A stretch of DNA of 64,000 nucleotides from Bdellovibrionales bacterium. Its GTDB lineage: Bacteria > Bdellovibrionota > Bdellovibrionia > Bdellovibrionales > JAUICD01. Shown here piece after piece: positions 9,934 to 43,074 of this stretch. Within the stretch, counting starts at the first letter, position 1; each line of letters begins with the position of its first letter. Below the pieces are notes generated by a model. That model worked only from the letters and a program-made list of their open reading frames with translations. It had not been told where the DNA came from and did no database searches. A program made the translations under genes and the position numbers. The stretch is taken from the NCBI GenBank assembly GCA_965203275.1, contig OZ241865.1:1312001-1376000 (forward strand), given 5' to 3'.

Positions 9934-11406
9934 TTATACTTTCACTTCTAAAGACTTTCCTGAAAGGAGTGTGGCAGCATCCACTCCAGAAAGGGCTTGT
10001 GAAACAAACAAAGGGCCTCTTTGGATATGTTGCACAACACCTGCTTGATTGATAAAAGTACCTGATTTTTCTACGAAAGACCTTAAAGGCACTTGCCACT
10101 GAAAGTCTTCAAAAAGATTATTCTTTGTTGGAGCAAACCATGCCACATTTTGAGCTTTTGAGAACAACTTAACTTTGTCTTTTAGATCAGGATAAACGGC
10201 TTGATTTTCTGGTCCTAGAACCACCAAATAATCTAAACCTGCTTTTAATGCATTTTCTAAATCAACCCATTTTGTTTTGATTTTAAAGTTTTTAAGGACT
10301 TCTTGTAGTCCTTGGGTGTTGGGATTTTTATCCCCTCTAATCAAAAGTCCATCAAAGTCATCAAGGGTTTCAGGGTTATTGATCCAATGAAATATTTGAG
10401 TGCTATTAAAGTTTTCTATAAAGGTTTTAACAAAGGCATTATATTCTTCCGTTGTGTACTGCCCTGTTAAAACCAAGGCTATTTTATCAGATTTGAGGGC
10501 TTTGAGTTCCTTACCAATTTCTATGGCAGCTTGACCAGGAGGAAGTGTAGCAAGCTCTTTGTTGGTTTTGTGATAACCTTGTGTGATACGATGTTCAAGG
10601 TTGACAAATTTATACACGTCACGTCCCTCATCACACATCCAATGCCCATTGACTTTTTCATTGTAAAGGGGGGTGACTCGATAAAGGCCATTTTCGTTAA
10701 AGTAAATTTTAATGTTACAACCAGTGGAGCAACCCTGGCAGACTGTATTGAAGTTTTTTAAAAACCAAACTCGTTGTTGAAAGCGAAAATCCTTAGAGGT
10801 CAAAGCTCCTACAGGGCAAATATCCACTACATTTAATGAATATTGGTTATTGAGAGGCTTGTCTTGAAATGTACCAATTTCACTATGGTCTCCTCTGTTG
10901 AAAATACCTAGTTCATGTGTTTGAGAAACTTCATCAGTAAAGCGAACACAACGAGAACATAAAATGCATCTTTCTGTATCTAAGACAACTTGAGGACCTA
11001 GATCAACGACTTTACGTTTTTTGACTTTTCGCTCTGCCATTTGAGAGTCATAATTGCCATGAGCCATAAAGTATTCTTGCAATCCACATTCACCAGCTTG
11101 ATCGCAAATAGGACAATCAAGAGGATGATTGATCAAGTGAAACTCTAAACCCCATTTAACAGCTTCTTTGACTTTTTCAGAATTATTAGAAACCACCATA
11201 CCATCTTGTACAGGGATATTGCAGGCAATTTCTAATTTAGGACGGCCTTCAATCTCCACAAGGCACATACGGCACACACCAGCGACACTAAGGCCCGGAT
11301 GCCAACAGTAGTGGGCTATGTCGGTGGACGTCTGCATAAAGGCTTCAATGAGTTTGGAACCCTCTTTAAGTTGACATGTTTTACCATTAACTGTCAGCTT
11401 GGGCAT
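9934..11406 (-). CDS. nuoG: NADH-quinone oxidoreductase subunit G-like (short form)
   Basis: HYCWHPGLSVAGVCRMC, NHPLDCPICDQAGEC, RCILCSRCVRF, DICPVGAL. Confidence 0.9.
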   Translation of the reverse strand: MPKLTVNGKTCQLKEGSKLIEAFMQTSTDIAHYCWHPGLSVAGVCRMCLVEIEGRPKLEIACNIPVQDGMVVSNNSEKVKEAVKWGLEFHLINHPLDCPICDQAGECGLQEYFMAHGNYDSQMAERKVKKRKVVDLGPQVVLDTERCILCSRCVRFTDEVSQTHELGIFNRGDHSEIGTFQDKPLNNQYSLNVVDICPVGALTSKDFRFQQRVWFLKNFNTVCQGCSTGCNIKIYFNENGLYRVTPLYNEKVNGHWMCDEGRDVYKFVNLEHRITQGYHKTNKELATLPPGQAAIEIGKELKALKSDKIALVLTGQYTTEEYNAFVKTFIENFNSTQIFHWINNPETLDDFDGLLIRGDKNPNTQGLQEVLKNFKIKTKWVDLENALKAGLDYLVVLGPENQAVYPDLKDKVKLFSKAQNVAWFAPTKNNLFEDFQWQVPLRSFVEKSGTFINQAGVVQHIQRGPLFVSQALSGVDAATLLSGKSLEVKV

Positions 11407-11427: not shown

Positions 11428-11958
11428 TCAGGTTTTTATATTTAATGGATCCATACGCTCGCTTAAAAATTCTTTCAAAACAACTTCAAACTTATTTATT
11501 GGTTGCAATTCAGAAATACATTTTGTAAGTTTGAATGAAGCATTTGCTCCTTTTTCCATAGAAACCAATTTTCCAACTTTTTCAGTAGCTATGTCTGCCT
11601 TAGAGTATATATTGAAATAAATATTATTGGGAGCTATTCCAATACAAATCACAGCATCATAACTTCTATGATGTCTAATGTGGTTGAATTGAAATTTGCC
11701 ATGGGTGTCTTCTGTAGCTGTTTTTATTTCAATTCTGCTTTTTGTAATTTCAATATCCCAAGACGTTTGTTGTGTTGGTATATTAAAATTGAGATTTAAG
11801 TTTTCTAAAATCTTACGTACAAATTTTTCTCCAACTGTTCCAACGGCCCTATTATTTATTAACTTAATCTTTCTAAAATGACACTGATCCCATTTCTTCT
11901 GGTTATTTTCTTTGTCTAAAATATGTTGAAGTATTTTGTTATAATTCATTACTATCAC
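11428..11958 (-). CDS. Putative type II restriction endonuclease (PD-(D/E)XK fold)
   Basis: GTVGEKFV...WDIEITKSRIEIKTAT catalytic-like pattern; overlaps the upstream methyltransferase gene. Confidence 0.65.
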   Translation of the reverse strand: MIVMNYNKILQHILDKENNQKKWDQCHFRKIKLINNRAVGTVGEKFVRKILENLNLNFNIPTQQTSWDIEITKSRIEIKTATEDTHGKFQFNHIRHHRSYDAVICIGIAPNNIYFNIYSKADIATEKVGKLVSMEKGANASFKLTKCISELQPINKFEVVLKEFLSERMDPLNIKT

Positions 11959-12892
11959 ACAGCCTTTTTTGTATATGAAATATACTTATATGATGACAAT
12001 TATGAGTTGTTAAATTGCTATATTTTATCCAATTTGTATTTTCAATAATTCTTTTTATTTTTGCCTTATCCCTTTTTATAATAAAACCATAACCGCAAGT
12101 ATATTTGACTTTAGAAAAACAATGCACAATAGAAGGTGGGACATCATAAAATGTTCTTTGTAGAAAAAAATCAGCCTTTTTCATTTTTGTTTGACCACAA
12201 AGTCTTTCTTTTCTGTTATCAACAGTAAATATATCGACAAATGTAGAGAGGTCTTTTAATTTGACCTTTTGGTTTTCTCCTTTTTTCCAAATTTGCCATA
12301 ATGTGTTCATTTTCATCGTCTGTCCTTGAGCATTTGCAAAAGAACCCATGGGTAGTTTTTCAGAATGTATTAATTGCATTTCTTTTATTCTTAACTTAGG
12401 AGAACCTCTGACCTCACTTTGAAAAGACATAGGAAGGATAAACCCAACATAATCTGAGAATATAGCACAATGATTTAAAAACTTTATAGCAAGCCATGCA
12501 CGGTAACCAAACGGTGGATTTCCGATACATATATATTTTTCACCTTGAGGTTGCCATGACAAAAAATCTTGCTTTATAACCCCTTCTGCTTTAGGGTCTA
12601 TGTCTAAGCCTATTCTTTTTTTAGGAAGTATTTTAAAAAAACTTCCGTTTCCTGCACTTGGTTCAATAAATGTGTATTCATCTAATTTTACATTTTTATT
12701 TTTTAAAATTGTAATGAAAGAGGCAAGACAATATCTTGCTATTTTAGGTTTTGTATAAAATTGATCTAAATCAAAATTTTTTAAAGCCCATGTAGGAATG
12801 ATTTTTCTCTTTTTCCAAGAAATTAAAAGATTTCTCTCTTTTAAAGAATGATAATTATTTAAAATATAGGAATCAAATCCATCCATTTTCAA
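11939..12892 (-). CDS. SAM-dependent DNA amino-methyltransferase (m6A/m4C type)
   Basis: DQFYT, motif I IEPSAGNGSF, motif IV IGNPPFG. Confidence 0.85.
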   Translation of the reverse strand: MKMDGFDSYILNNYHSLKERNLLISWKKRKIIPTWALKNFDLDQFYTKPKIARYCLASFITILKNKNVKLDEYTFIEPSAGNGSFFKILPKKRIGLDIDPKAEGVIKQDFLSWQPQGEKYICIGNPPFGYRAWLAIKFLNHCAIFSDYVGFILPMSFQSEVRGSPKLRIKEMQLIHSEKLPMGSFANAQGQTMKMNTLWQIWKKGENQKVKLKDLSTFVDIFTVDNRKERLCGQTKMKKADFFLQRTFYDVPPSIVHCFSKVKYTCGYGFIIKRDKAKIKRIIENTNWIKYSNLTTHNCHHISIFHIQKRLCDSNEL

Positions 12893-12965
12893 AAGGTCTT
12901 CCCCCTAACTCAAATGTCTATCAATCTACATAATTTAAAAACAAATCCAAATATCCTTTTAGGAT

Positions 12966-13385
12966 TTAGTTACTTTTAAAGATATTTAATACTATAGCCC
13001 TACCAAATGTAAGAAGACTTGCAACCATGCTACCTAAAATGGCTATAAATTCATATTCTTTAAAAAAGAACTTCCCATCACCAAGAAAATTCATATATCC
13101 CTGCAAGAAGATACAAACCAAAGCAACAACTATCCATCCAATGCTTACGTAATAAAACAAATCTGCATATTTTTTATTATAATTTCTACTAGATTCTGAT
13201 GTTTTGATCTGTTCTTCTATTGTTTTTAGTTTAAGCTCATCGAGCTTTCTTTTCATTTCAAAGGAATGCCCCCTATATTTATTGATTTGAGTTTGTGTTT
13301 TTATTGCTTCTAAGGATTCTTCTTTCTCTTCTTGAGACATCCTATCGAGAATGGTTTTATCTATGTTTGACATTGAATCTCTCAT
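12966..13385 (-). CDS. Two-TM membrane protein; putative toxin partner of the Panacea antitoxin
   Basis: Charged N-terminal helix, two C-terminal hydrophobic helices; ATGA overlap with the upstream DUF4065 gene. Confidence 0.6.
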   Translation of the reverse strand: MRDSMSNIDKTILDRMSQEEKEESLEAIKTQTQINKYRGHSFEMKRKLDELKLKTIEEQIKTSESSRNYNKKYADLFYYVSIGWIVVALVCIFLQGYMNFLGDGKFFFKEYEFIAILGSMVASLLTFGRAIVLNIFKSN

Positions 13386-13870
13386 TCAGCTTGTTTTTTG
13401 AATTTTAAATAATACGTCTTGATCATTTCATTATCTATTGACATACCTTCAATTTCATTGCTTTTTTCTATTGTTTGAGACCAAGGACTTCCTTCAACAT
13501 GAGTTAAAGCTGATAATTCCCACGCTGCCATATTACCGTATTTGTTTAAAATAAAGTCCATGATAGCCATTTCATTTTCTGTAAAATCAGATTGACACTC
13601 TCTTAAATTTTCACCCATATCATCAAATTCTCTCGCTTTTTGGCTTTTTGTAATCTGACTTAATTTTTTAAACTCGTGGTATATGGAAGGGAAAACAGGA
13701 CCATATTTCCAAGCCAAGGCATATTCATTAACTAAAGGTTGATTTGTAATGGCTAAAGTGTACCCATGAGCTATATACACAAGCTTAATTAGCTTTGTAC
13801 AAGTCAATCTATCATCACTTTGTTCAATAAAATAATTTGCCACAGCTAAGGGATTATGTCCTTTGTCCAT
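13382..13870 (-). CDS. Panacea (DUF4065/SocA/GepA-like) antitoxin domain protein
   Basis: AVANYFI, KLIKLVYIAHG, AWKYGPV..IY, LSALTH..GSPW; likely start ATG 13870 after GAGGAG. Confidence 0.9.
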   Translation of the reverse strand: MDKGHNPLAVANYFIEQSDDRLTCTKLIKLVYIAHGYTLAITNQPLVNEYALAWKYGPVFPSIYHEFKKLSQITKSQKAREFDDMGENLRECQSDFTENEMAIMDFILNKYGNMAAWELSALTHVEGSPWSQTIEKSNEIEGMSIDNEMIKTYYLKFKKQAE

Positions 13871-14027
13871 CTTTTCTCCTCTCATATAAATATATCATTT
13901 AAGTCTATAAATTTGAAGTTTATTGTTCGGATAAGGTTCAACAAATATTACTTTTTTATACCTGTGTCAATAATATACCTTGTGCAGTTATGGCATGGTA
14001 GAGTGTAGTGCAGTAAATAGTCCTCTA

Positions 14028-15293
14028 TTATTTGATCACTTTTGATCGGCCTTCCTTAATAAAGAATTCAAATTCATCTCTAAATTTTGTAATAAAACCA
14101 ATGGTGGGCATAGCAGCAGCATCAGACAAGGCACATATAGTCCGTCCTTGCATATTATTAGAAATCCTCTCTAATAAATCAATATCTTGTAATCGACCTC
14201 TGCCTTCCATAATCCCTTGAACAATTTTTTCTGTCCATCCTGTGCCTTCCCTACAAGGCGTACATTGGCCACAAGATTCATGGTGATAAAAATGCAATGT
14301 GATCTTAAGCATATCCACCATACATCGCGTTTCATCTAAAATGATCACAGCCCCAGAACCTAACATCGACCCCATCTCTGCTAAACACTCATAATCCATT
14401 GTAGCTTTTTGGCATTCAGCATAAGTCAGAATAGGAGCAGAACTTCCTCCCGGAATACAACCTTTAAGTTTATGACCATCTCTCATCCCTTGGCATTCCT
14501 TCTCGATCAAATCCATTAAAGGATAACCTAATGGCACTTCATAGTTACCAGGCCTGACCACATCACCACTGACAGAAAATAACTTAGTACCAGATGACTT
14601 TTCTGTTCCATACTTACGGTAACCCTTAGCCCCTATCTTTAAAATATACACCACAGTAGCTAGAGTCTCTACATTATTGACAATAGTGGGCTTACCTAAA
14701 TACCCTTCTACAGCAGGAAAGGGAGGTTTTAACTTTGGTTGGCCTTTTTTGCCTTCAAGAGAAGAAATCATCCCTGTCTCTTCCCCACAAATATATGCAC
14801 CTGCTCCTCGATACACATCTAAATCAAAATGAAATTTACTGCCTAAAATATTACGACCCAACAAATTAGCTTTGTAAGCTTCAGAAATAGCCTTCATCAA
14901 AATATTGTAGGCGTCTGAATATTCCCCCCGAATATAAATATATCCTTTATGAGAAGATATGGCATAAGCAGAAATAAGCATCCCTTCTATCAATTGATGA
15001 GGAGCCTTTTCCATCATTAAGCGATCTTTAAAAGTCCCCGGCTCCCCTTCATCTGCATTGCACAGTAAATAACGAGGTTCAGAGTTTTTAGGTAAGAAAC
15101 TCCACTTTAACCCCGTAGGAAAACCAGCTCCACCTCTTCCTCGGAGGCCTGATTGCTTGACCTCCTCTATAATAGATTGAGGTTTCATTGTAAAGGCTTT
15201 GTTCAACATCTCATAACCACCATGTTTTTGATAGCCTTTGAGTGTTTGAAATTCCTTTTTATCGTAATGTTCTGTCAACAGTGGCTTTTTCAT
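14028..15293 (-). CDS. nuoF: NADH-quinone oxidoreductase subunit F
   Basis: [52 protein letters not shown]. Confidence 0.97.
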
Positions 15294-22342: not shown

Positions 22343-23233
22343 CTTTCACTCAAAATGAGCCACATCTCTGTTTCACTAAAAGTGGTCTGACCTCTGGTCA
22401 CTTTCTGGTTGCCAGCCGAAGGCTATTCGCCTTCTTAAATGCTGGCAACCTAGAAAGCTTGACCACTTTTAGTAAGGAGGATCCATTTCTCATTTAACAC
22501 CATGTTAAGGAAAAAGTTCTTTCTTACACCTTTTGACCACGATGGCTTTCGCCATCGGTAAAATGGTCATCACCTAGAAAGCCTGACCACTTTTAGTAAG
22601 GAGGATCTCTTCGTTTCTTAACACCATGTTAAGGATTTGTTTCACTCAAAATGCATCATGCCTCTGGCATGTTTTCTGGCAGTTAGCCCAACGGCTTATC
22701 GCCGTTGATCAAAGGCTAACTGCCTAGAAAATCCATTTATTTTGAGTAGGGAAGGATCTTCTCGTCTCTTAACATGATGTTAAGGAAACAGTTCCTTCTT
22801 ACACCTGCTTGCCTGATGCCGGATCCCGGGATCCCGGATCCCGGAAAAAATCAATTTTAACTTTAAGTGTTTTTACACAACTTGTATAAATAAGCTCCTA
22901 ATTGATCAGCTTGTTTTGCTAATTCCATACAGCCACTAAATTCCAAGTCTAGTATTGCCTGAACTGTTTTTCACTAAAAGTAAACTAGCCGTCTTTTGCA
23001 CTAAAAGTAAACTGACCTCTGGTCACTTTTGGGTTGCCAGCCGAAGGCTATTCGCCTTCTTAAATGCTGGCAACCTCAAAAGTCCGTTTACTTTTAGTAG
23101 AGGAGGATCTCTTCGTTTTTTGACTACATGTTAAGGAAAATGTCCTTCTAATGGCAGTTAGTCCGACGGCTTATCGCCGCCGATCAAAGGCTAAGCTGTT
23201 TCACAGTGGTCTAGCCTCTGGCTACTTTTTGGT
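22343..23233. repeat. Mosaic array of structured repeats (module A copies at ~22366-22515, 22534-22635, 22639-22790, 22999-23140; fragments; GGATCCC tandem at 22817-22844)
   Basis: Recurring TTTCACT(A/C)AAA, CCTCTGG, GGAGGATC and TTAACA-N3-TGTTAAGG motifs with nested inverted repeats. Confidence 0.9.
22863..22964 (-). pseudogene. 3' fragment of a probable four-helix-bundle protein gene
   Basis: Minus strand reads VQAILDLEFSGCMELAKQADQLGAYLYKLCKNT*; truncated at its 5' end by a repeat; family assignment is from memory of the C-terminal pattern. Confidence 0.55.
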
Positions 23234-23342
23234 TGGTTTTTTGACTAAGTTATAATATAATGTTTCATTAGTTAGACAGATGATTAGAAATTAAGTTATT
23301 ATTAAGTATTATGTTTAAAGATATAAAGGGAGGTTCAAAGTT

Positions 23343-24416
23343 ATGACAGAGAGAATTTTATTACAATTAACAATAGATGCTATTTTCAAGGCTTTTTTTG
23401 AAAATAGAAAAGATCTTTTAATTTCACTGGTAGAGAATTTTGTACCTTTGCCTAAGGGTTCTGTGATAGAGGATGTTTCATTATTAAACACAGAGCTTCT
23501 TCCCGATAAGGTTCCAGACGAATACAAATCCTTTACTTTAGATTTGCGTGTGAAATTAAGAAGACAGGTCAGAGGCGTTCTTCAAGATACAGATATTGTC
23601 CATGTAGAAGTTCAAACAACAAGTCAAAAATTTTTTACAGATCGGATATTAGTTTATGCTTCTAGGGCTTATTCTGGTCAGATAAAGAAAGGCGAAGATT
23701 TTAATCAATTACTTCCTGTGTATTCACTTGTTTTTACAACAGCTAATTTAAAAGAATTTGCAGGGATAAAGGATTACTATCATATCTGCAATATCCGTCG
23801 GACAAAACCACCAGAAGTGATTATGTCTCGTGGATTGTGTTTTGTCATTGTGGAATTAGGCAAGTTTCAGTCAAGTTTGCATGAATTATTTGACAAAAAG
23901 GCAGATTGGTGTTATCTTTTAAAGAACTCTGGTAATATGGATTTAAAGGAGTATACCAATTTTCAAAACAAGGGAGGTATTATGGCAGAAGCAGCAAAGC
24001 ACTTATGGATATTATCAAAAGATGAGACATTACAGGAACTTGCAATGGTGAAAGAGAGAGACAGAAAAGATCAAGCAGCCAGAGAAGAGGGTGCTTATGA
24101 AGAAGGAATGAAGAAAGGGATGAAGAAAGGTCGTAAGGAAGGAATGGAGGAAGGAATGGAGAAAGGAATGGAGAAAGGAATGGAGGAAGGAATGGAGAAA
24201 GGAATGGAGAAAGGAATGGAGAAAGGAATGGAGAAAGGAATGGAGAAAGGAATGGAGAAAGGAATGGAGAAAGGGATGGAGAAAGGGATGAAGAAAGGTC
24301 GTAAGGAAGGAATGGAGAAAGTGGCACAAAATATGTTGAAAGAAAATCTCAATATTTCATTGATTTCTACAATGACAGGTTTATCCAAAGATGACATTCT
24401 CAAGCTGAAAAAATAA
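23343..24416 (+). CDS. Rpn family recombination-promoting nuclease / PD-(D/E)XK putative transposase
   Basis: D.IFKAFF, LDLRV..HVEVQ, R..VYASR.Y..QI.KGE, FVIVELGKF; G(M)EK repeat tail; VAQNMLK...ISTMTGLS end. Confidence 0.92.
   Translation: MTERILLQLTIDAIFKAFFENRKDLLISLVENFVPLPKGSVIEDVSLLNTELLPDKVPDEYKSFTLDLRVKLRRQVRGVLQDTDIVHVEVQTTSQKFFTDRILVYASRAYSGQIKKGEDFNQLLPVYSLVFTTANLKEFAGIKDYYHICNIRRTKPPEVIMSRGLCFVIVELGKFQSSLHELFDKKADWCYLLKNSGNMDLKEYTNFQNKGGIMAEAAKHLWILSKDETLQELAMVKERDRKDQAAREEGAYEEGMKKGMKKGRKEGMEEGMEKGMEKGMEEGMEKGMEKGMEKGMEKGMEKGMEKGMEKGMEKGMKKGRKEGMEKVAQNMLKENLNISLISTMTGLSKDDILKLKK
23973..23984 (+). promoter_or_regulatory. Internal in-frame SD (GGAGG) and ATG for a short Rpn C-terminal product (23982-24416)
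   Basis: GGAGGtattATG, in frame with the gene; the same signal is present in the second Rpn gene and at the start of the free-standing copy. Confidence 0.75.
24100..24320 (+). repeat. 12-bp coding tandem repeat (GGAATGGAGAAA; GMEK/GMEE/GMKK)
   Basis: Directly visible in DNA and protein. Confidence 0.95.
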
Positions 24417-24418
24417 TT

Positions 24419-24835
24419 TGCTCAAAAGTAGCCAGAGGATTATCCCTAACCCCACCCCCCACCCTTTGATTGCTTTTTTCACTCAAAATGAACTGGCCTC
24501 TGGCCACTTTTGGGTAGCCAGCCCGACTGCTCACGCCGTCGTAAAAAGCTGGCTACCTCAAAAGCTTGTTCATTTTGAGTAGAGAAGGATCTCCTCATTC
24601 CTCTACACCATGTTAGGGAAAAAGTGCTTTTATTACCTTAAGAGCAAGCGGTTTACAAATGAGGGACTTTTTCCTTAACATGTAGTTAAAAAACGAGGAG
24701 ATCCTCCTTACTAAAAGTAAACGGATTTTTGAGGCATTGCTCTTTTTGGACAGCGATAGCTGTCAGAGCAATGCCCAAAAACAGCCAGAGGCTGGTTTAC
24801 TTTTAGTGAAACAGAGGCTGGTTTATTTTTAGTGA
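24419..24835. repeat. Inverted pair of module A repeats (24477-24622 and 24668-24817) with linker and fragments
   Basis: Two family copies in opposite orientation joined by a ~45-bp linker. Confidence 0.88.
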
Positions 24836-24852
24836 GAATAAAAGGAGGCGTT

Positions 24853-25167
24853 ATGGCAGAGGCAGCAAAGCACTTATGGATATTATCAAAAGATGAGACA
24901 TTACAGGAACTTGCAATGGTGAAAGAGAGAGACAGAAAAGATCAAGCAGCCAGAGAAGAGGGTGCTTATGAAGAAGGAATGAAGAAAGGAATGAAGAAAG
25001 GAATGGAAAAAGGGATGGAGAAAGGGATGGAGAAAGGTCGTAAGGAAGGAATGGAGGAAGGGATGGAGAAAGTAGCACAAAATATGTTGAAAGAAAATCT
25101 CAATATTTCATTGATCTCTACAATGACAGGTTTATCCAAAGATGACATTCTCAAGCTGAAAAAATAA
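24853..25167 (+). CDS. Free-standing Rpn C-terminal domain (RpnS-like putative antitoxin)
   Basis: AAAGGAGG-ATG; near-identical to 23982-24416 except for fewer GMEK units. Confidence 0.8.
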   Translation: MAEAAKHLWILSKDETLQELAMVKERDRKDQAAREEGAYEEGMKKGMKKGMEKGMEKGMEKGRKEGMEEGMEKVAQNMLKENLNISLISTMTGLSKDDILKLKK

Positions 25168-25169
25168 AC

Positions 25170-25940
25170 TGCTCAAAAGTGACCAGAGGTCAGTTTACTT
25201 TTAGTGAAACAACTATCCCTAACCCCACCCGCCACCCTTCGATTCTGCTTTCTCATTTTGTTTTTACTTGAGGATGAGGGCAGAGGGAGCCTTCCGAAGT
25301 CCTCAATTGAGCTTGCTTTTAAGGAGCAAGCTCAATTTGCGGAAGATCTCCAGTCTCCCTCTGCCCCCATCCTCCCCTAAATGATTTTTTATTTGAGAGT
25401 TACGCAGAATCTAAAAAAAATAAAAAAACAAAAAATACTTCCTCCGGGATACGGAATCCCGGGATCCGGGATCTGGGATCCGGGATCTGGCAAGCCGGCA
25501 TCAGATCCCGGGATGCCAGATTGCTTGATCCCGGATCCCGGGAGTAAATGTTTTGTTTCCTTAACATGGTGTTAAGAGAAAAAAGGATCCTCCTCTACTC
25601 AAAATAAATGAATTTTCTAGGCAGTTAGCTTTTGATCGACGGCGGTAGCCGTCGGGCTAACTATTAGAAGAATGTTTTCCTTAACATGGTGTTAAGAAAC
25701 GAAGAGATCCTCCCTACTCAAAGTGAACAGGCTTTTGAGACAATGACCATTTTGTCAAAGGCGAAAGCCTTTGCGGTCATTGTCCAAAAGTGGCCAGAGG
25801 CCAGTTCACTTTGAGTGAAACAGAGGTCAGTTCATTTTGAGTGAAAAAAATTGAGGACTTCGGAAGGCTCACACTGCCCTATCCTCAAATAAAAATAAAA
25901 TGGAAAAGCAGAATTGAAGGGCGATGGGTGAGGTTAGGGA
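25170..25940. repeat. Mosaic repeat array: module B (25216-25445), GGATCCC tandem (25444-25543), module A copies (25556-25672, 25675-25826), inverted module B half (25849-25940)
   Basis: Direct comparison with the other arrays. Confidence 0.88.
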
Positions 25941-25978: not shown

Positions 25979-28147
25979 TTAGGGGGTGGGGCCGGGAAGT
26001 AAATCTTGTCTATCTTGAGGATGCCAACCTTTACTATCATACGGAAGTTGTCTATTATGATTTTGACTCCCTCTTATACAACAATGATGGTCACTTTCTG
26101 TTTTTACCTCATACACATCTGTAGTATTGCTTGACAGCTTAAATTTGAAAGGGTCATAAAAAGTAAAGTCATGCCAGTCCGTTCTACCATAGTGGTCTAA
26201 ATCCTCACAATCTTTTGTATAACAAGCATCGAGACGGCTTGGACACATATTATTGTGAAGATCGTCATTGTCTTCAAGATACTGTTGTTGACCTGTCCAA
26301 CCTGCTAATTTAGCAGCAGTGGCACAAGTAGGGTAACATTCACCAGCACTAGATACATATTTATATCCAGGAGGACAATCTCTTTTGTAAGCTCGTCTGC
26401 AACATTTATCTTCTACAGCACCTTTAATTTCCAAAACATTCCAGGTCTGTCTATCAACATCGCAATAATCCCCAGTTTGTGTTTCAACTAAGAGAGCTTT
26501 TGCAGTTGTTTTCTCAAACACCATACAACGTGGAAGGCATTGACTCCCACCTACAGGTGTAGCATAGCCTGCAAGTATTTGCTCCTGAGTACAAGTAGCA
26601 TTCACATCTTCCTCTCCCTCCTCAGATGATGATGCAGTGGAGGTGGGGCTAGATGAAGAAACGGGTACACAACCATTAGCAGCACTTGTTCCACATCCAG
26701 GGTAGTAAGGTATTGACGGTTGACCAGGAGGTCTTGGACGGGTATATATCCATCCATATTTATTTACAGAAGCTTGAGGTGTTGCACCTGATGAAGAACT
26801 TTGCATAAAGAAGGCATCCTCAACTCCCCTAACCCCTGTGCCTACTTCAGAAGATTCATCGTTACTTCCAGATCTTCCAGTGGTCGTAGATGTTGTTGAA
26901 TCTGTGCTAGATTCTGCCGGGTCAGGACTGGCCTGCCATGTTGTTGTACCTTTACCATGAATGATTTGAACTGTTCTTACGATAGCTTGATTATTAATTA
27001 AGCATTTATATGCAATGCGATCGGTCTCAACCTCTTCGACAGTTGCACAGTTACCAGTGCATGCATACCCCCAATTAGGGTCTCCACCTGAGCCTTTTTG
27101 TAAAATTTGTACAACACGATCCATAAATCTCCAGTTTTCATTTGTGTGTTGAGCTTGATCTGTTATAGTGTTTTGATGATGTTTAAAAAATGTATTAAAC
27201 TCTTCTTCATACTGCTGTCTTGTCATATCTACAACCCTCTCCTGCTCATTAGGGATATTACATCTGCCTGGGCAAGCTTCACTGTTAGGATCCTCAGAAC
27301 ATGACCTAACAATTTCACAACAACAGTTCTCTTTACAATTCTCATCCTGTGAACATTCACTACCATCAAAGTTATCTGAAGCCTCAAAATTGAAAACACA
27401 ACCATTCCCCTTTGTGCTAGGTAATTTGACTAACACCAGCTCAGATCTTTCTCTTATATTGCCTGCATGACCAGCAGGAAGTCTCTTTTTAACAAGACCT
27501 GACACCATTAAGCCAATCACATCTCCAGAGCGAAGCACTAAATTTTCTAGTTTTGAAGCCTCTGTACGTCGACCCAATGATAATCTTTTATTTGGTACCC
27601 ATCGATAATCATATAAATTTTTGATATTCTCAGCATCTAATGTGTGACAAGCCTCACCCTCTCTCATATAATCATAAGTAGCAGCAACAGACTCATCGTC
27701 ATTTAGCTTTACTAAAATCCATGGATTGCCTTCGACTTTTACATCCATATTAGGAAGTGATAAAGACGGCCATTGACCTAATTGAGTATGATCAATGCAA
27801 ATTTGTCCATTTTTTTTAATCTCTATTTTTGTTATTTTAGATGTTTCAGGCCACTTTCCTACAATTGGTTCGCCTCCCGGCGGTCCCTCATCCCCTGGAG
27901 GGACTTCAACACCAGGATCGTCTATATCTTTATCAGGGTCAGGAGGATCAGGGTCAGGGAGAACAGTATCACCGGGGCGATCTGCGGCACGATTAGAAGG
28001 ATATTCAGACGATTCTTCCCCTCCTAAAAAAGAACAGTTCATAAACATCAAAAGGCTTGCAATACTTGTTAGGCTAAGAGCCATTAATACTTTTTCTTTT
28101 TGATGATTACGTTTGACTGGAATTTTCATTTTAAATAACAACCTCAT
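25979..28147 (-). CDS. Cys-rich secreted lipoprotein, function unknown
   Basis: Hydrophobic N-region ending FMNC; Pro/Asp and Ser/Thr linkers; many Cys pairs. Confidence 0.7.
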   Translation of the reverse strand: MRLLFKMKIPVKRNHQKEKVLMALSLTSIASLLMFMNCSFLGGEESSEYPSNRAADRPGDTVLPDPDPPDPDKDIDDPGVEVPPGDEGPPGGEPIVGKWPETSKITKIEIKKNGQICIDHTQLGQWPSLSLPNMDVKVEGNPWILVKLNDDESVAATYDYMREGEACHTLDAENIKNLYDYRWVPNKRLSLGRRTEASKLENLVLRSGDVIGLMVSGLVKKRLPAGHAGNIRERSELVLVKLPSTKGNGCVFNFEASDNFDGSECSQDENCKENCCCEIVRSCSEDPNSEACPGRCNIPNEQERVVDMTRQQYEEEFNTFFKHHQNTITDQAQHTNENWRFMDRVVQILQKGSGGDPNWGYACTGNCATVEEVETDRIAYKCLINNQAIVRTVQIIHGKGTTTWQASPDPAESSTDSTTSTTTGRSGSNDESSEVGTGVRGVEDAFFMQSSSSGATPQASVNKYGWIYTRPRPPGQPSIPYYPGCGTSAANGCVPVSSSSPTSTASSSEEGEEDVNATCTQEQILAGYATPVGGSQCLPRCMVFEKTTAKALLVETQTGDYCDVDRQTWNVLEIKGAVEDKCCRRAYKRDCPPGYKYVSSAGECYPTCATAAKLAGWTGQQQYLEDNDDLHNNMCPSRLDACYTKDCEDLDHYGRTDWHDFTFYDPFKFKLSSNTTDVYEVKTESDHHCCIRGSQNHNRQLPYDSKGWHPQDRQDLLPGPTP

Positions 28148-28285: not shown

Positions 28286-28843
28286 ATGGAACAAAACCTT
28301 TCTGACCACAAATCTCAAATTATAGCTATTATAAAAAAGCGATCACTTCAAAAAGGACCTATTCGCTTAGCTTCTGGTAAGGTCAGCAATTTCTATATCG
28401 ATCTCAAACAAACTATCCTTGACCCTCAAGGACTTGACCTCTTATCAGACTTGATTTTAGAGTTCTTAAACAAAAAAAATCTTGTTGGTGTGGCAGGCTC
28501 TGGTATAGGAGCATTGCCTCTCACAACGGCTGTCACCCTAAAATCGCTAAATACTCCTAAACCCTTTCTGCATCTTTATATACGATCTCAAGTAAAGGAG
28601 TGGGGGACTAAACAAGTGATAGAAGGCACTCACAGCTTCCAACCTAAAGATAAAGTTTGGATTTTAGAAGATGTTGTCACAACAGGCGGTTCTAGCCTCT
28701 ATGCTACTCAAAAGTGTCAAGAGTTTGGTCTCCAGGTAGAAGGCATTCTCACCTGTGTTGACCGACAAGAGGGAGGGAGAGAAAAGATTGAAAATAAAGG
28801 CATTCACTTTCACAGCTTAATCCATATGTTTGATTTACACTAA
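28286..28843 (+). CDS. pyrE: Orotate phosphoribosyltransferase
   Basis: LASGKVSNFYID, EDVVTTGGS, CVDRQEGG. Confidence 0.93.
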   Translation: MEQNLSDHKSQIIAIIKKRSLQKGPIRLASGKVSNFYIDLKQTILDPQGLDLLSDLILEFLNKKNLVGVAGSGIGALPLTTAVTLKSLNTPKPFLHLYIRSQVKEWGTKQVIEGTHSFQPKDKVWILEDVVTTGGSSLYATQKCQEFGLQVEGILTCVDRQEGGREKIENKGIHFHSLIHMFDLH

Positions 28844-29811
28844 AAGTAAACTGACCTCTGGTCACTTTTGGACATTGCTCTGACAGCTATCGCTGTCCAA
28901 AAAGAGCAATGTCGTTGGTTCACTAAAAGTGGTCTGACCTCTGGTCACTTTCTGATTGCCAGCCGAAGGCTATTCGCCTTCTTAAATGCTGGCAACCTAG
29001 AAAGCATAACCACTTTTAGTAGGAGGATCCTTTCCTCTTTTAACATCATGTTAAGGAAACAGAACTTTATTCGCAAACCGCTTGCTTCTGAGGTAATAAA
29101 AGAAATTTTCCTTAACATGGTGTAAAAGAATAAAAGGGTCCTCCTCTACTCAAAATGCATAGATTTTTGAGGCAATGACCATTTTGCCAACGGCGTAAGC
29201 CGTTGCGGTCATTGCCCAAAAACATGCCAGAGGCATGATGCATTTTGAGTGAAATGTTAAGGAAAAAGTCCTTTCTGATGCCGGGTTGCCAGATCCCGGA
29301 TCCCGGGTGAACACAATGTTAAGGGTTTGTTTCACTCAAAATGCATCATGCCTCTGGTTCACTAAAAGTAAACTAGCCTCTGGCTACTTTTGGGTAGCCA
29401 GCCCGACGGCTCTCGCCGTCGATCAAAGGCTGACTACCTCAAAAGCTTGTTCAATTTTAGGAAGAAGGATCACCTTGCTTTTTAACATGATGTTAAGGAA
29501 AAAAGATTTCCTTTTTTTTGTTTTTTTTATTCTTTTTTAGATTCTGCGTAATTTTCAAAAAAACATAAAATTTATGAGTGGGAGGCGGGGGCAGGCTGAA
29601 GATCTTCCGCAAATTGAGCTTGCTTTTAAGGAGCAAGCTCAATTGAGGACTTCGGAAGCCTGACCCCGCATTCCACTCATAAAAAACATACAAATGGAAA
29701 GGCAGAATCAAAAGGGTGGCGGGTGGGGTTAGGGAGTTTGTTTCACTAAAAATAAACCAGCCGTCATTTTCACTCAAAATGAATTGACCTCTGGACGCTT
29801 TTAGTGAAACA
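28838..29811. repeat. Mosaic repeat array: module A (28838-28912, 28918-29060, 29106-29254, 29357-29503), GGATCCC tandem, module B (29507-29735), fragments
   Basis: Direct comparison with the other arrays. Confidence 0.88.
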
Positions 29812-29948: not shown

Positions 29949-32900
29949 TTAATTGTTGCTTAAGTGAATATCTGATATTCTTCTCTGAATTCCATTGCGG
30001 TCAACAGATATTTCTCCATTATCTTTAATGTTAATAACTATTTTACCATTTTCAACCTGCCAATTAAATATAATATTTCCATCCTGCAGTTGGCTTTTGT
30101 TTACTTTTACCCAAGCTTTATTATTCTCATTCTCAATTCTTGATCTAATATCACTAAAACCACTTGCTCTATCTTGCATTTGCAAATATTCTTCAACTAA
30201 GAAATCTATAACCGCAGGGTCTACAACATATCTTATTGTTTTTTGACTGCTTTCCATCATGTCCAACTCAGACTGTACTACTTCCATCAAGGCATCTCTA
30301 CTTAAAAATCCCATCCAAAAAGTATGATCAATTCTTCGATAAAAGGCAGCTGGACCTCCTGAATTACGGTTGCTCATTATAGAATCTGTACCAGAAAATT
30401 CTTTTCTTAGCTGAGCAATTGCTTCTGACTTAAGCTCCGCAGGGAGTTCTAATAAATCTTCTGCTGGATATCGTCTTTTGAAATTTTCTACAGCTCTACT
30501 TAGATCTTCTGGAGTTATTTCTTCTTCTGTACGCTTACCATTGATCACTGCTATTATCTCTCTCTGTGTAGGTGCCAGTTCGTTTGGATTTAAATCATTT
30601 AGCTGATTGTTTCTTATTTTCATAATAAAATCCAAATCTTCTTTTGATCTTTCATTGATTCTCAGTTCTTCCATTTGTTCTGCATTAAACCCATACTTCA
30701 AAAGACTAAAATCTGGGTTTAAATCTAAGAAGATCATTGTATTTTGAAAAGACACAAGCCGACCTTTTGAATCTTCTATCACTCCATCTTCAAAAATATT
30801 CATCAAAATATTTAAAATACTAGATGGCATCTGATTGACCTCATTGATATAGATGACAGCACGAGGATTATTAATCACTTTTGCAGTAAGAGATTGATTA
30901 TCTGCTAAGGAATCATTGTCTCTATTTAGAAGATCCTTATTTCCTAATAAGCTTTCTATAGTGGCAGTAGAACCTCTCACTTTGATAATAGCGTCTTCTT
31001 TTTGCTTTCCTGGATGAAAGAATTTCCCTATTGTTTCAACTAATATGGTTTTACCAATGCCTGGTGGACCAAGAAGAAGTATAACTCTAGTAGGTCTTTC
31101 TGGTTTAGAAGTCATTTTGGATGCAGCACCTAGTAGCATATTACCAATGTCTTCAACGAGAGAACCATAGCCTTTGAATCTAGCCCTTACAGATTGTACA
31201 AAGTTCTCTAAACTGTGATATAATTCTGGCCCTGCGTATGTTTCCACAGGCATTCCCAATGCTTCCCCTACAATAATATCTATATCTTGAATAGTTATGG
31301 AAGTTTGTAAATTTTCAATACGTTCTTGGATTATATCTAAAGAAAGACCCTCTTTTATGTCTCTTTGTAGTTGATGAAATGAATCTTTTTGAGTTTCATT
31401 TAGATTATTTTCTGCATAATCAAAAATGTTATCGAGAAGTGTTTTTCTGCTCTTGAAATATTCAGATCCAAAGTGATAGTATTTATTCGCAAGAAATAAA
31501 GCTCGATCCATAATAAGTGTCTTTTGTGTTGATGTGAAAAGAGGTTTATTGAGATTGTTTTGATCAAATAAATAGTTTGAGACAGATTCTATCTGCCTTT
31601 GATCAGGTGTAGGCATGTCTACCGTGGTAAATCCTTGACCTATCTGACTGCCCATAAAATTTCTGGATTGTCCTTGTCTTAATCTACCAACAATCCTTAA
31701 TCCACCACTATGTGGGTCTTCAGCAGCTTTTTTCATGATACCTAGTAAACTCGATCCAATATTATCATTTGGAGAGCCTTCTGTTGGTCCTTTTTCAAAT
31801 AAGTCTCTGACTAAATCATCTACTACCAAAATACACTGGCCATTACAATTTGCAATTGCATCTTTCATTTTCAGCATATTTTTTTCTAGGTCACCAGAAT
31901 ATCTAGTCCCTGCTACTGCATGTTCAGAATTTAATCGAAAAAATCCTATATTTACTAAACGCGGATCTATCTTACCATGATAGGGGCTATTAGGATCCTT
32001 TGATTCCATAATGGCATGAATAGTATCATGTATTAATGTTTCGCGACCTGTTCCTGGAAGTCCTGTCACGGCTACAGAAGAGTTACCTATATTAGTAAGG
32101 GCTTGTGCCACTTTTATAATCAAATTGGGATCAGAAACACCTTTAGATAACTTACCTTCTTCAGCTTTACGTGTTAAGTTTTCTGTAGTATAAGGGATAG
32201 AGGCATTTTGGACAGATGCACTGGATGAAGCAGGAGGGTTATAATTTGAATTTGCATACTGCTGAGTATCTGTAAAACTTGTTCTTTCTTCTCCTCTGAC
32301 ATAGTGAATACTTTGATAAAGCTTATCTGTTACTTCGGCAGTTTTTCTATCTATTTCTCTTTGAGGTTTTAGTCCTCCCCAAGTTCTTGTGAACCTTTGC
32401 CACCATGTAGATTGAGTAGTTAAGTTAGTGAACAAAAAATCACGAATAGCATGATCCGCGTTTAAAATGCCTAAAAGAAAGTGTTCAGGGGCAGGCGTGT
32501 TAAAAAATGCTTTGTTATTCCTTTGTCGGAAAAGTTCTTCTTTTGTTGCGGCATTTTCAGCTAATGCAATCAGGTCTTCATCTTCTTTTATTTTAAGGTG
32601 ATCACGATTAAGAATAGATTGAGTATTTTCAGATATTTCCTCTAAATTTAATCTCAAATCTCCATTTTCATTTCTTTCAAAAGGAGGTTCTGGAGTATTA
32701 TTTCCATGTTGAAAATATCCCAGTCTGTTCAAAAGAAAGTCTTGAAAAGACTTTACATCAAAGCCTGCATTTTTCAAGATAGCAGGCAAGGTACCATTAG
32801 TAAAATTCCAGCCTTGGTAAGTAGAATAGACAGCTTGTGCATCATTATTATTTTTATTAGGTTCTTTAGATCGAACCTCCAATGTGAGTGCAAGCAAGAC

Positions 32901-33110
32901 ATGTTCTGGTAGGACAATAGAACTTCCTAAGGCATGAGCTATGTGGGTAGCTGCCCCTATAGCTTCTTGAACCTCTCGAGTCATTTTTTTGACTCTACCA
33001 TCAGAAGGACACATTGCATACACAGAAACACTTTGCACTTGAACAAATATCACAAAATAACATATTAAATAAGTTTTTAACTTTAACATAATGTATGACT
33101 TATATACCAC
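29949..33110 (-). CDS. Divergent ClpA/ClpB-like double AAA+ protein with signal-peptide-like N-terminus
   Basis: Clp-N repeats (PEHVLLAL, PEHFLLGIL), AGTRYSGDLE, GPPGIGKT, EDSKGRLVSFQNTMI, AFYRRID; true start may be ATG 33089. Confidence 0.8.
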   Translation of the reverse strand: MVYKSYIMLKLKTYLICYFVIFVQVQSVSVYAMCPSDGRVKKMTREVQEAIGAATHIAHALGSSIVLPEHVLLALTLEVRSKEPNKNNNDAQAVYSTYQGWNFTNGTLPAILKNAGFDVKSFQDFLLNRLGYFQHGNNTPEPPFERNENGDLRLNLEEISENTQSILNRDHLKIKEDEDLIALAENAATKEELFRQRNNKAFFNTPAPEHFLLGILNADHAIRDFLFTNLTTQSTWWQRFTRTWGGLKPQREIDRKTAEVTDKLYQSIHYVRGEERTSFTDTQQYANSNYNPPASSSASVQNASIPYTTENLTRKAEEGKLSKGVSDPNLIIKVAQALTNIGNSSVAVTGLPGTGRETLIHDTIHAIMESKDPNSPYHGKIDPRLVNIGFFRLNSEHAVAGTRYSGDLEKNMLKMKDAIANCNGQCILVVDDLVRDLFEKGPTEGSPNDNIGSSLLGIMKKAAEDPHSGGLRIVGRLRQGQSRNFMGSQIGQGFTTVDMPTPDQRQIESVSNYLFDQNNLNKPLFTSTQKTLIMDRALFLANKYYHFGSEYFKSRKTLLDNIFDYAENNLNETQKDSFHQLQRDIKEGLSLDIIQERIENLQTSITIQDIDIIVGEALGMPVETYAGPELYHSLENFVQSVRARFKGYGSLVEDIGNMLLGAASKMTSKPERPTRVILLLGPPGIGKTILVETIGKFFHPGKQKEDAIIKVRGSTATIESLLGNKDLLNRDNDSLADNQSLTAKVINNPRAVIYINEVNQMPSSILNILMNIFEDGVIEDSKGRLVSFQNTMIFLDLNPDFSLLKYGFNAEQMEELRINERSKEDLDFIMKIRNNQLNDLNPNELAPTQREIIAVINGKRTEEEITPEDLSRAVENFKRRYPAEDLLELPAELKSEAIAQLRKEFSGTDSIMSNRNSGGPAAFYRRIDHTFWMGFLSRDALMEVVQSELDMMESSQKTIRYVVDPAVIDFLVEEYLQMQDRASGFSDIRSRIENENNKAWVKVNKSQLQDGNIIFNWQVENGKIVINIKDNGEISVDRNGIQRRISDIHLSNN

Positions 33111-33171: not shown

Positions 33172-33397
33172 TTTTCACTAAAAGTAAACTGACCTCTGGT
33201 CACTTTCTGGTTGCCAGCCGAAGGCTACCGCCTTCTCAAAAGCTGGCAACCTAGAAAGCCTGTTCACTTTGAGTAGGGAGGATCCCTTCACTTTTTTACT
33301 TCATGTTAAGGAAACAAAATGCTTTCAAAATTATATTAAAAGAGCAATGTCTCAAAAGTGGCCAGAGGCCAGACCACTTTTAGTGAAACAGAGGTCA
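33172..33397. repeat. Module A copy (33172-33315) and opposite-strand fragment (33341-33397)
   Basis: Same motifs and stems as the other copies. Confidence 0.88.
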
Positions 33398-34336
33398 CTT
33401 TACTTTTAGTGGAAACGACTGGCGAATTTTTTTGATTTCTGCTTCTGATAGGCCAGTGATTTCACAGATATCTTGTAATTTTGCATTTCTCTCAATTAGC
33501 TTAAGTGCAATCTCTTTTTGTTTCTTCTCAATACCTTCTTCACGACCCTTCTCAAGACCTTCTTCACGACCCTCGTCACGAACAAATTCTTCTCTGTCTA
33601 CTTGATCCCTCCTAGCTCTCTCTTTCACCATATCAAGCTCTTGTAATGTCTCATCTTTTGATAATATCCATAAATGCTCAGCTGCTTCTGCCATGATTCC
33701 TCCTTTATCTTTGAAATATAAATATTCCTTTTGGTCCATCTGACCCGACCTCTTTAAAAAATAACACCAATTCTCTTTTATGTCAAATAATTCTCCTAAT
33801 TGGGACTGAAATTTATCTAATTCTACTATCACAAAACTCATACCCCGCGACATCACTACTTCTGGATGCTCTGTCCGACGAATATTGCAAACATGGTAAT
33901 AGTCCTTTATTCCTTCAAATTCTTTTAAATTTACAGTTGTGAAAACCAATGAATACACTGGAAGTAACTTATCAATATTCTCACCTTTCCTAATTTGACC
34001 TGAATAGAGCCGAGATAGATACATCAGTAACCTATCCGTAAAATGCTTTTGAGCTGTCGTTTGGACTTCTACATTCGCTGTCTCTGTATTTTGAAGAATG
34101 CCATTAATCCTTCTCCTTAACAGCACTCGCAAATCTAAAACAAAAAATTTATACTCCTCCGGGAATTTATCCGATGGAAGTTCTGTATTTAATATATGAA
34201 TGTCTTCTATTACAGAACCCTCTGGCAATGGAAGAAAATTCTCCATTATCGAAATCAAAAGCTTTTTCTTCCTTGTAAAGAAGGCCTTGAAATTACGATC
34301 TTTTGTTAAACTTAAATTCTTGCTTGGTTTTTTCAT
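33395..34336 (-). CDS. Rpn family recombination-promoting nuclease / PD-(D/E)XK putative transposase (second paralog)
   Basis: D.NFKAFF, LDLRV..NVEVQ, FVIVELDKF, GREEG repeats, EITGLS; internal GGAGG-ATG at 33694. Confidence 0.92.
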   Translation of the reverse strand: MKKPSKNLSLTKDRNFKAFFTRKKKLLISIMENFLPLPEGSVIEDIHILNTELPSDKFPEEYKFFVLDLRVLLRRRINGILQNTETANVEVQTTAQKHFTDRLLMYLSRLYSGQIRKGENIDKLLPVYSLVFTTVNLKEFEGIKDYYHVCNIRRTEHPEVVMSRGMSFVIVELDKFQSQLGELFDIKENWCYFLKRSGQMDQKEYLYFKDKGGIMAEAAEHLWILSKDETLQELDMVKERARRDQVDREEFVRDEGREEGLEKGREEGIEKKQKEIALKLIERNAKLQDICEITGLSEAEIKKIRQSFPLKVK

Positions 34337-42967: not shown

Positions 42968-43056
42968 TTTTGTCAAAGGCGAAAGCCTTTGCGGTCATTG
43001 TCCAAAAGTGACCAGAGGTCAGTTTACTTTTAGTGAAATGGACCACTTTTAGTGAA
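42968..43056 (+). repeat. Partial module A copy with duplicated 3' end
   Basis: CAAAGGC-GAAA-GCCTTTG..GGTCATTGTCCAAAAGTGACCAGAGGTCAGTTTACTTTTAGTGAAA. Confidence 0.85.
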
Positions 43057-43074
43057 AAGGACTAAAGGACTATT

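Follow-up and report, generated by a model that had tools for sequence, protein, structure and literature searches.

In the parts of Zhong et al. (2023, PNAS, PMC10400941) that deal with RpnS, five rpn genes of Escherichia coli and one of Clostridioides difficile are described in which a second protein, RpnS, is produced from an internal start. RpnS neutralises the toxic full-length protein RpnL, with which it forms a complex of two plus two subunits (RpnL2-RpnS2), and the crystal structure of RpnA-S is a dimer of three-helix bundles (PMC10400941). Here we have analysed two rpn genes, rpn1 and rpn2, and a stand-alone copy of the RpnS part of rpn1 in a stretch of 64,000 nucleotides (nt) from a Bdellovibrionales bacterium (assembly GCA_965203275.1, contig OZ241865.1, positions 1,312,001 to 1,376,000), called the window in the following. 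The original prediction for this DNA, made from the letters without database searches, had described the Rpn proteins as toxic anti-phage DNases inhibited by internally translated RpnS proteins, in agreement with the published account.

The RpnS proteins carry four-residue repeats, whose number varies between strains and which begin 8-20 residues past the start methionine in the RpnS proteins examined (PMC10400941). RpnS with one extra repeat did not counteract RpnL unless RpnL carried the same extra repeat (Fig. 4D of PMC10400941), and according to the corresponding part of the commentary (PMC10400984) a repeat mismatch prevents complex formation. The same sections of Zhong et al. describe rpnESs (ypaA) and rpnCSs, separate downstream genes that arose as independent local duplications of their own upstream gene; such rpnSs genes can vanish by deletion or by fusion with an rpn N-terminal domain (PMC10400941). 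The tagged RpnESs protein was detected in E. coli, and an annotation of rpnSs as DUF4351 (PF14261) is stated for some species only (PMC10400941). Among the matches listed in the literature search, none beyond this paper and its commentary dealt with RpnS.

The candidate internal start of rpn1 and rpn2

The window has a G+C content of 35% and contains two long open reading frames (ORFs) of the Rpn family, rpn1 and rpn2 (Table 1). Their assignment to the family in the original prediction was borne out by profile searches, since both were above the cut-offs of Pfam PF12784 (PDDEXK_2; E=1.8e-24 and 87.2 bits for rpn1, E=2.2e-25 and 90.2 bits for rpn2, cut-off 27.4) and of NCBIfam TIGR01784 (91.6 bits for rpn1, 107 bits for rpn2, cut-off 52.1). 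In the AlphaFold2 (AF2) model of rpn1, with a mean predicted local distance difference test score (pLDDT) of 81.5, an alpha/beta core extends to about residue 171 and helices follow from residue 185 on. The residues K62, D67, E89 and Q91 of rpn1 were invariant in an alignment of 36 homologues and may be the catalytic residues of the nuclease.

Both genes contain an in-frame ATG behind a Shine-Dalgarno (SD) sequence GGAGG and a spacer of 4 nt, at 23982 (M214) in rpn1 and at 33694 (M215) in rpn2, exactly where the original prediction had placed them. On the minus strand, positions 33703-33692 of rpn2 read GGAGGAATCATG. The motif GGAGGNNNNATG occurs five times on both strands of the window, compared to 1.02 +/- 1.03 times in shuffled sequences, and none of 100 shuffles reached five. 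Three of the five sites are the internal starts of rpn1 and rpn2 and the start of the stand-alone copy. Since these three sites are homologous by descent, they are not independent of one another, and the independent support for the internal start therefore comes from the conservation of the ATG in relatives, where 21 distinct sequence contexts were found.

The relatives were collected in a profile search of genome contigs with an alignment of 12 sequences. This gave 39 loci, 37 of which were Rpn loci (L001-L037) from five metagenome-assembled genomes (MAGs) of the Bdellovibrionales and Bacteriovoracaceae; the window's own species was not among them. Two Vibrio loci (L038, L039) matched in the repeat tract only and were left out of all counts. 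The stop-to-stop ORFs of the loci and of the window were searched with hidden Markov models of the N- and C-terminal halves, which found both halves in 46 ORFs, the C-terminal half alone in 36 and the N-terminal half alone in 9. The loci resemble rpn1 and rpn2 in having 34-54% identity over the best segment, a K-G-(G/E/R)-x-M start with an SD and several copies per genome. They include no orthologue of rpn1 or rpn2, the maximum being 54% over the best segment.

The codon aligned to M214 was ATG in all 45 ORFs of the relatives that have both domains. The count was confined to ORFs in which the C-domain match started within the first five profile positions with E <= 1e-5, and many of them are paralogues. 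The ATG was preceded by AGGAGG, AGGAGA, AGGGGG, AGGAAG or GGGAGG, mostly 4 nt upstream. The 45 ORFs have 21 distinct start contexts of 21 nt, and in all 21 the predicted pairing with the anti-SD reached -6 kcal/mol or lower (mean -10.5). At the other in-frame ATGs of the same genes (n=74) only 15% reached -6 kcal/mol, with a mean of -2.9. In the 36 aligned full-length homologues, which have 35-68% identity to rpn1, M214 was kept in at least 90% and was preceded by the residues K-G-G/E-x.

Three independent natural events were found in which a separate ORF starts at this ATG. The first is the duplicate in the window. In the second, an orthologue of rpn1 (P0122, 227 amino acids (aa), 90% identical) is frameshifted just before the internal ATG, and a separate RpnS ORF of 104 aa with 8 repeat units (P0001) lies on the same 9.5-kb contig. 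The third is the locus L033, where the gene is naturally split and a separate ORF begins at this position. The place of M214 in the AF2 model of rpn1, where it opens the helix 212-225 past the nuclease core, also supports an internal start.

A promoter-like site was found upstream of the internal ATG in both genes (Table 1), ending 63 nt before it in each case. The position and quality of this site vary among the relatives and it is a consensus match only, so an internal promoter may exist as a possibility. Taken together, rpn1 and rpn2 are probably RpnL/RpnS gene-within-gene modules and belong, within the Rpn family, to the TIGR01784/PDDEXK_2 branch.

How these genes are translated, and how toxicity, binding and phage defence would come about, we infer as follows. 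RpnL would be a PD-(D/E)XK DNA nuclease with the toxicity of its E. coli homologues. Ribosomes would also initiate at the internal GGAGG-N4-ATG (M214 in rpn1, M215 in rpn2) and produce the C-terminal helical domain alone, an RpnS of 144 or 99 aa, and a short transcript from the internal promoter may serve this start. By its long helix, which bears the repeats, RpnS would then pair with the identical domain in RpnL and keep the nuclease inactive until phage infection.

The stand-alone RpnS copy downstream of rpn1

The separate ORF at 24853-25167 begins at the same SD and ATG and, as the original prediction had noticed, encodes only the C-terminal part of Rpn with a shorter repeat tract. It lies on the same strand as rpn1, 436 nt past the rpn1 stop codon. 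The homology between the two at the DNA level begins at 23970 and 24841, respectively, 12 nt before the ATG and with the SD included, and ends at 24471 and 25244. The repeat search returned it as three pairs, 23970-24201/24841-25072 (91%), 24223-24438/24974-25189 (90%) and 24441-24471/25214-25244 (94%). The 123-nt heads at 23982-24104 and 24853-24975 differ at one base. In E. coli, ypaA and rpnE are homologous from 14 nt ahead of the ypaA ATG onwards, also with the SD included, and the proposal that the breakpoint of the duplicate marks the internal start is therefore well founded.

Outside the repeats, the coding part of the copy was identical to rpn1 at 216 of 219 nt; the three differences are synonymous and all 73 residues are the same. 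The flanks differed at 10 of 67 nt (3 of 12 upstream and 7 of 55 downstream), and the divergence of coding and flanking sequence was significantly different (Fisher p=4e-5). Of all single changes that these codons allow, about 19.5% are synonymous, and three out of three synonymous differences would thus occur by chance with a probability of about 0.007. The SD of the copy was retained despite the 3 changed bases among the 12 upstream. The copy thus looks constrained, which points to purifying selection. To the C-terminus of rpn2 it had 48% identity in tblastn, and it is closest to the RpnS of its own upstream gene, which argues for a local duplication. No further copy beyond the three was found by tblastn across the window.

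In profile searches, the TIGR01784 match of the copy covers the model positions 196-272 only, no match to PF14261 (DUF4351) was obtained even at E<=10, and PADLOC gave a weak match to a "putative invertase". The precomputed annotations of many relatives of the C-terminal part carry PF27070.1.

The C-terminal domain is homologous to RpnA-S of E. coli. A profile of 29 short homologues matched the RpnA chain of PDB 7TH0 (49 aa) with E=2.9e-7, positions 65-102 aligning to residues 8-45 of the chain, and the full-length profile matched the same chain with E=0.0044. The AF2 model of the 104-aa copy (pLDDT 82.2) has helices at 2-80, 85-92 and 96-103. In a Foldseek search with this model, 7th0 was third (template modelling score on the target 0.84, root mean square deviation 0.8 A over 41 columns, 29% identity); its E value of 0.62 is not significant, as the domain is small. 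The other top matches were helix-turn-helix domains of serine recombinases. As in 7TH0, two short helices come after a long first one in the predicted structure of the copy, and the last 40 or so residues align, comprising the last repeat unit and the helix-turn-helix-like end. Unlike 7TH0, the predicted first helix is about 80 residues long and has an extra head of about 40 residues (MAEAAKHLW...) that is absent from RpnA-S.

Copy and parent do not have the same number of four-residue repeats, each unit of which consists of one hydrophobic residue and charged or glycine residues. The tract of rpn1 has 18 units (GMKK, GRKE, GMEE, GMEK and others), that of the copy 8 and that of rpn2 4, and close relatives have 3-8. 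Other complete copies downstream of an rpn gene also tend to differ from their neighbour: ypaA has one 12-nt unit more than the nested RpnS of rpnE, the copy at L005 is one unit shorter, and the one at L035 lacks 5 aa and has another C-terminal end. Only the copy at L012 equals its neighbour in length. In L004/L006 and L005, no more than about 14 nt separate the duplication breakpoint from the ATG; in L012 and L035 it is located further upstream. On contig OZ253553.1, the adjacent loci L002 (65-4314) and L003 (15766-16828) have an rpn gene followed by a tandem array of about 8 or more RpnS-like modules, several of which are fused in frame and five of which have ATA, ACA or GAT at the position of the start ATG.

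Possible roles of the copy

In the proposed mechanism the copy would be a local duplicate of the rpnSs type, kept under purifying selection and translated from its own SD. We consider it probably translated. Since the copy has 8 units, rpn1 18 and rpn2 4, the published matching rule suggests that it would act inefficiently on either RpnL and would probably inhibit the present Rpn1L poorly or not at all. We think it most likely that the copy forms dimers of its own and is kept as an alternative allele of the C-terminal module with another length. A complex prediction of rpn1 residues 214-357 with the 104-aa copy scored 0.04 (mark 0.32); it was made with no controls and is no evidence either way.

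The original prediction had called the copy an orphan or extra antitoxin. Orphan does not apply, with the parent rpn1 436 nt upstream, and extra antitoxin is doubtful. A true spare antitoxin would bind Rpn1L (or Rpn2L) despite the repeat number and raise the ratio of antitoxin to toxin. The complete agreement of the 73 non-repeat residues with the RpnS of rpn1, the strong SD and the constraint on the copy would all suit this role, and in E. coli the analogous RpnESs protein was detected in the experiments cited above. The repeat number, however, argues against it. One extra unit abolished the neutralisation in E. coli in both directions (PMC10400941) and a mismatch blocks the complex (PMC10400984), as far as these sections of the two papers report. 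In the window the mismatch amounts to 10 units with rpn1 and to 4 units with rpn2, which also differs in sequence. As ypaA and the copy at L005 are one unit off as well, mismatch looks common and not accidental. Under the specificity rule of the paper, this speaks against such copies being simply extra antitoxins, and we give a spare antitoxin about one chance in four.

A tentative explanation, which we would put no higher, is that the downstream RpnS copies are stored alternative C-terminal cassettes, where a cycle of duplication and deletion shifts the repeat number while toxin and antitoxin stay matched. If this is true, recombination between the 123-nt heads would remove the DNA that separates them and join the nuclease domain of rpn1 to the 8-unit module. 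A single step would thus switch RpnL together with its nested RpnS. An exchange of C-terminal modules does occur, as the make-up of a hybrid protein (P0121) indicates. It is an orthologue of rpn2, 85% identical to it overall and near-identical through residue 268, and has a C-terminus of the rpn1 type with more units. The rpn genes move horizontally.

Several observations weigh against reading rpn1 and rpn2 as gene-within-gene modules with a functional copy downstream. The repeats of rpn1 start 41 residues after M214, outside the reported 8-20 residues (in the RpnS proteins treated in PMC10400941). This offset is a reported regularity and not a definition, and a start at the second in-frame methionine M235 (MVKER...), which is 20 residues ahead of the repeats, would fit it. 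The SD ahead of M235 is only a weak AGGA, and more distant homologues do not conserve this methionine. A fold search with the whole rpn1 model gave only weak matches to restriction endonucleases, none with E<=0.001, and no Rpn model was matched in PADLOC. The two genes are set among housekeeping genes (truB-rpsO-pnp upstream) and not in a defence island, and their immediate neighbours had no matches to defence models; the enrichment in defence islands is a statistical tendency of the Rpn family and not a requirement. When the K-G-G codons were recoded synonymously, the mean pairing energy was -8.5 compared to the observed -10.5 kcal/mol. In all 21 contexts the observed pairing exceeded the mean after recoding, but it was among the strongest 10% in only 5 of 21. 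Most of the SD is already given by the conserved K-G-G residues, so that a constraint on the SD cannot be told apart from one on the protein by the choice of codons. RefSeq calls ypaA a pseudogene. Truncated downstream copies were found at L004, L006 and L014, and with the ATG-less copies of the L002 array they indicate that such copies can decay.

This decay and the status of ypaA would agree with the copy being a non-functional remnant, the 3' end of a second rpn gene whose nuclease half was lost by insertion of, or recombination at, the repeat element and which would look intact only because the event is recent. The duplicate starts at 24841, just 2 nt past the end of a repeat element at 24838, and another fragment follows the stop codon of the copy. 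Against a remnant stand the three synonymous coding differences beside flanks that have diverged about ten-fold more, and the SD that was kept in a changed upstream sequence. In addition, intact counterparts of the copy with different repeat numbers were found in other assemblies (P0002, P0003 and P0005), and two of them, P0003 (a 132-aa database protein, 2.58-Mb contig) and P0005, read through the upstream junction of the copy. The breakpoint just upstream of the SD also recurs independently in ypaA. We regard a remnant as unlikely.

Less probable still is that no internal translation occurs. In that case K-G-G-x-M would be a motif of structural importance where two helices meet, and the genes would encode a single-product nuclease or a mobile-element protein. 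The recoding result, where the amino acid conservation alone accounts for most of the SD strength, is in line with such a motif. So is the AF2 model of rpn1, where the motif lies at a helix break, and mobile-looking repeat elements surround the genes. It would leave unexplained that the duplicate and both natural frameshift splits begin at this ATG, and that an invariant methionine has a strong SD in every context, in contrast to the other in-frame ATGs. Moreover, internal initiation was demonstrated for the E. coli and C. difficile genes in the sections of PMC10400941 cited above. An assembly artefact, suggested by the repeat-rich surroundings and a 12-nt tandem tract that is error-prone for assemblers, is hardly credible, as the copies can be told apart by point substitutions, the order of their units, a 22-nt indel and unique flanks, and P0003 and P0005 span the same junction in other assemblies.

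We prefer to read rpn1 and rpn2 as gene-within-gene modules with a copy that looks constrained. The features are listed in Table 1, and the spacer between rpn1 and the copy is taken up by two copies of an interspersed repeat element.

Table 1. Coordinates of the Rpn genes, their internal signals and other features in the window (SD, Shine-Dalgarno sequence; ORF, open reading frame; TRF, Tandem Repeats Finder)
Feature	Position	Strand	Remark
rpn1, full-length Rpn (RpnL), 357 aa	23343-24416	+	N-terminal PD-(D/E)XK domain, then helical C-terminal domain
Promoter-like site in rpn1, TTGACA-17-TATCTT with TG	23890-23918	+	consensus scan, 10/12 matches
Internal SD GGAGG of rpn1 (23973-23977), 4-nt spacer, in-frame ATG 23982 (M214)	23973-23984	+	sequence
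Nested RpnS ORF of rpn1, 144 aa	23982-24416	+	sequence
Repeat tract of rpn1, 18 tandem 12-nt units, GM(E/K)K / GRKE	24105-24320	+	TRF: 24103-24321, period 12, 18.2 copies
rpn1 3' flank within the duplicated segment	24417-24471	+	7 differences in 55 nt to the copy, plus a 22-nt indel
Two copies of the ~180-nt interspersed element filling the spacer between rpn1 and the copy	24475-24632, 24661-24838		repeat search
Duplicated segment (SD, RpnS coding sequence, stop, 3' flank)	24841-25244	+	repeat search and alignment
SD GGAGG of the copy (24844-24848), 4-nt spacer, ATG 24853	24844-24855	+	sequence
Stand-alone RpnS copy (rpnSs type), 104 aa	24853-25167	+	C-terminal Rpn part only
Repeat tract of the copy, 8 tandem 12-nt units	24976-25071	+	TRF: 24974-25072, 8.2 copies
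rpn2, second full-length Rpn, 313 aa	33395-34336	-	4 four-residue units
Promoter-like site in rpn2, TTGACA-17-TATTTT with TG	33758-33786	-	consensus match only
Internal SD GGAGG of rpn2, 4-nt spacer, in-frame ATG 33694 (M215)	33692-33703	-	sequence
Nested RpnS ORF of rpn2, 99 aa	33395-33694	-	sequence
722-aa Cys-rich protein, between rpn1 and rpn2	25979-28147	-	no Pfam match
1053-aa protein with one AAA_2 ATPase domain, between rpn1 and rpn2	29949-33110	-	weak PADLOC match (DolB, E=1.1e-7)
Type II restriction enzyme	11431-11958	-	PADLOC E=1.5e-13
Type II methyltransferase	11942-12892	-	PADLOC E=5.9e-58
139-aa partner ORF	12969-13385	-	defence-like insert
SocA/Panacea-domain antitoxin	13385-13885	-	defence-like insert
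552-aa DDE transposase	57348-59006	-	PF01609

The element is about 180 nt long and has hairpin-forming ends (...CACTAAAAGT...CCTCTGG...). A 301-nt query gave 20 blastn matches in the window, in the zones 22344-23260, 24475-24838, 25174-25848, 28834-29802, 33172-33429 and 43002-43058, and the matches cluster between genes in the surroundings of rpn1, the copy and rpn2. Opposed copies of the element form inverted repeats of 94 nt at 22697-22790 and 25554-25647 (87% complementary), which bracket rpn1 and the copy. The rpn1 region is also flanked by G+C-rich runs of GGATCCCGG-like 15-nt units at 22800-22845 and 25433-25556, which are partly inverted repeats. The last six or so codons of rpn2 and its stop codon (...FPLKVK*; 33395-33429, minus strand) lie inside a copy of the element, which indicates that rpn2 has lost its original 3' end to an insertion of the element. 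Elsewhere in the window, a defence-like insert at 11431-13885 (minus strand) is located between a nuoG-like gene (9937-11406) and a nuoF-like gene (14031-15293).

Comparison with the Rpn systems of E. coli and C. difficile

As rpnESs and rpnCSs have already been published, a stand-alone RpnS gene downstream of its parent is not new, and the loci of the window are a new example of the published Rpn design, including the stand-alone duplicate. They extend the nested-antitoxin design with its downstream duplicate to a distant lineage of low G+C content, with an internal start that is invariant across 45 paralogues. Beyond the literature covered here is the tendency of downstream copies, ypaA included, to mismatch the repeat number of their neighbour.

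The closest counterpart is the rpnE-ypaA pair of E. coli K-12, where rpnE (2356904-2357803) is followed after a gap of 12 nt by ypaA (2357816-2358001). In both cases a local duplicate of RpnS lies downstream of an rpn gene with an internal SD and ATG and has the same orientation, and the homology of the duplicate begins just upstream of the SD. The spacer is different, with 436 nt of repeat elements in the window, and the loss of 10 repeat units by the copy is far larger than the gain of one unit by ypaA. The RpnS proteins of the window would be 99-144 aa long, whereas those of E. coli have 49-61 aa. The genes of the window belong to PF12784/TIGR01784; the Rpn proteins of E. coli we take to be members of PF04754. 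As a non-enterobacterial system, the Rpn of Clostridioides difficile is comparable to rpn1 and rpn2, since there, too, RpnS depends on a predicted ribosome-binding site and an internal translation initiation site (in the part of PMC10400941 on this gene).

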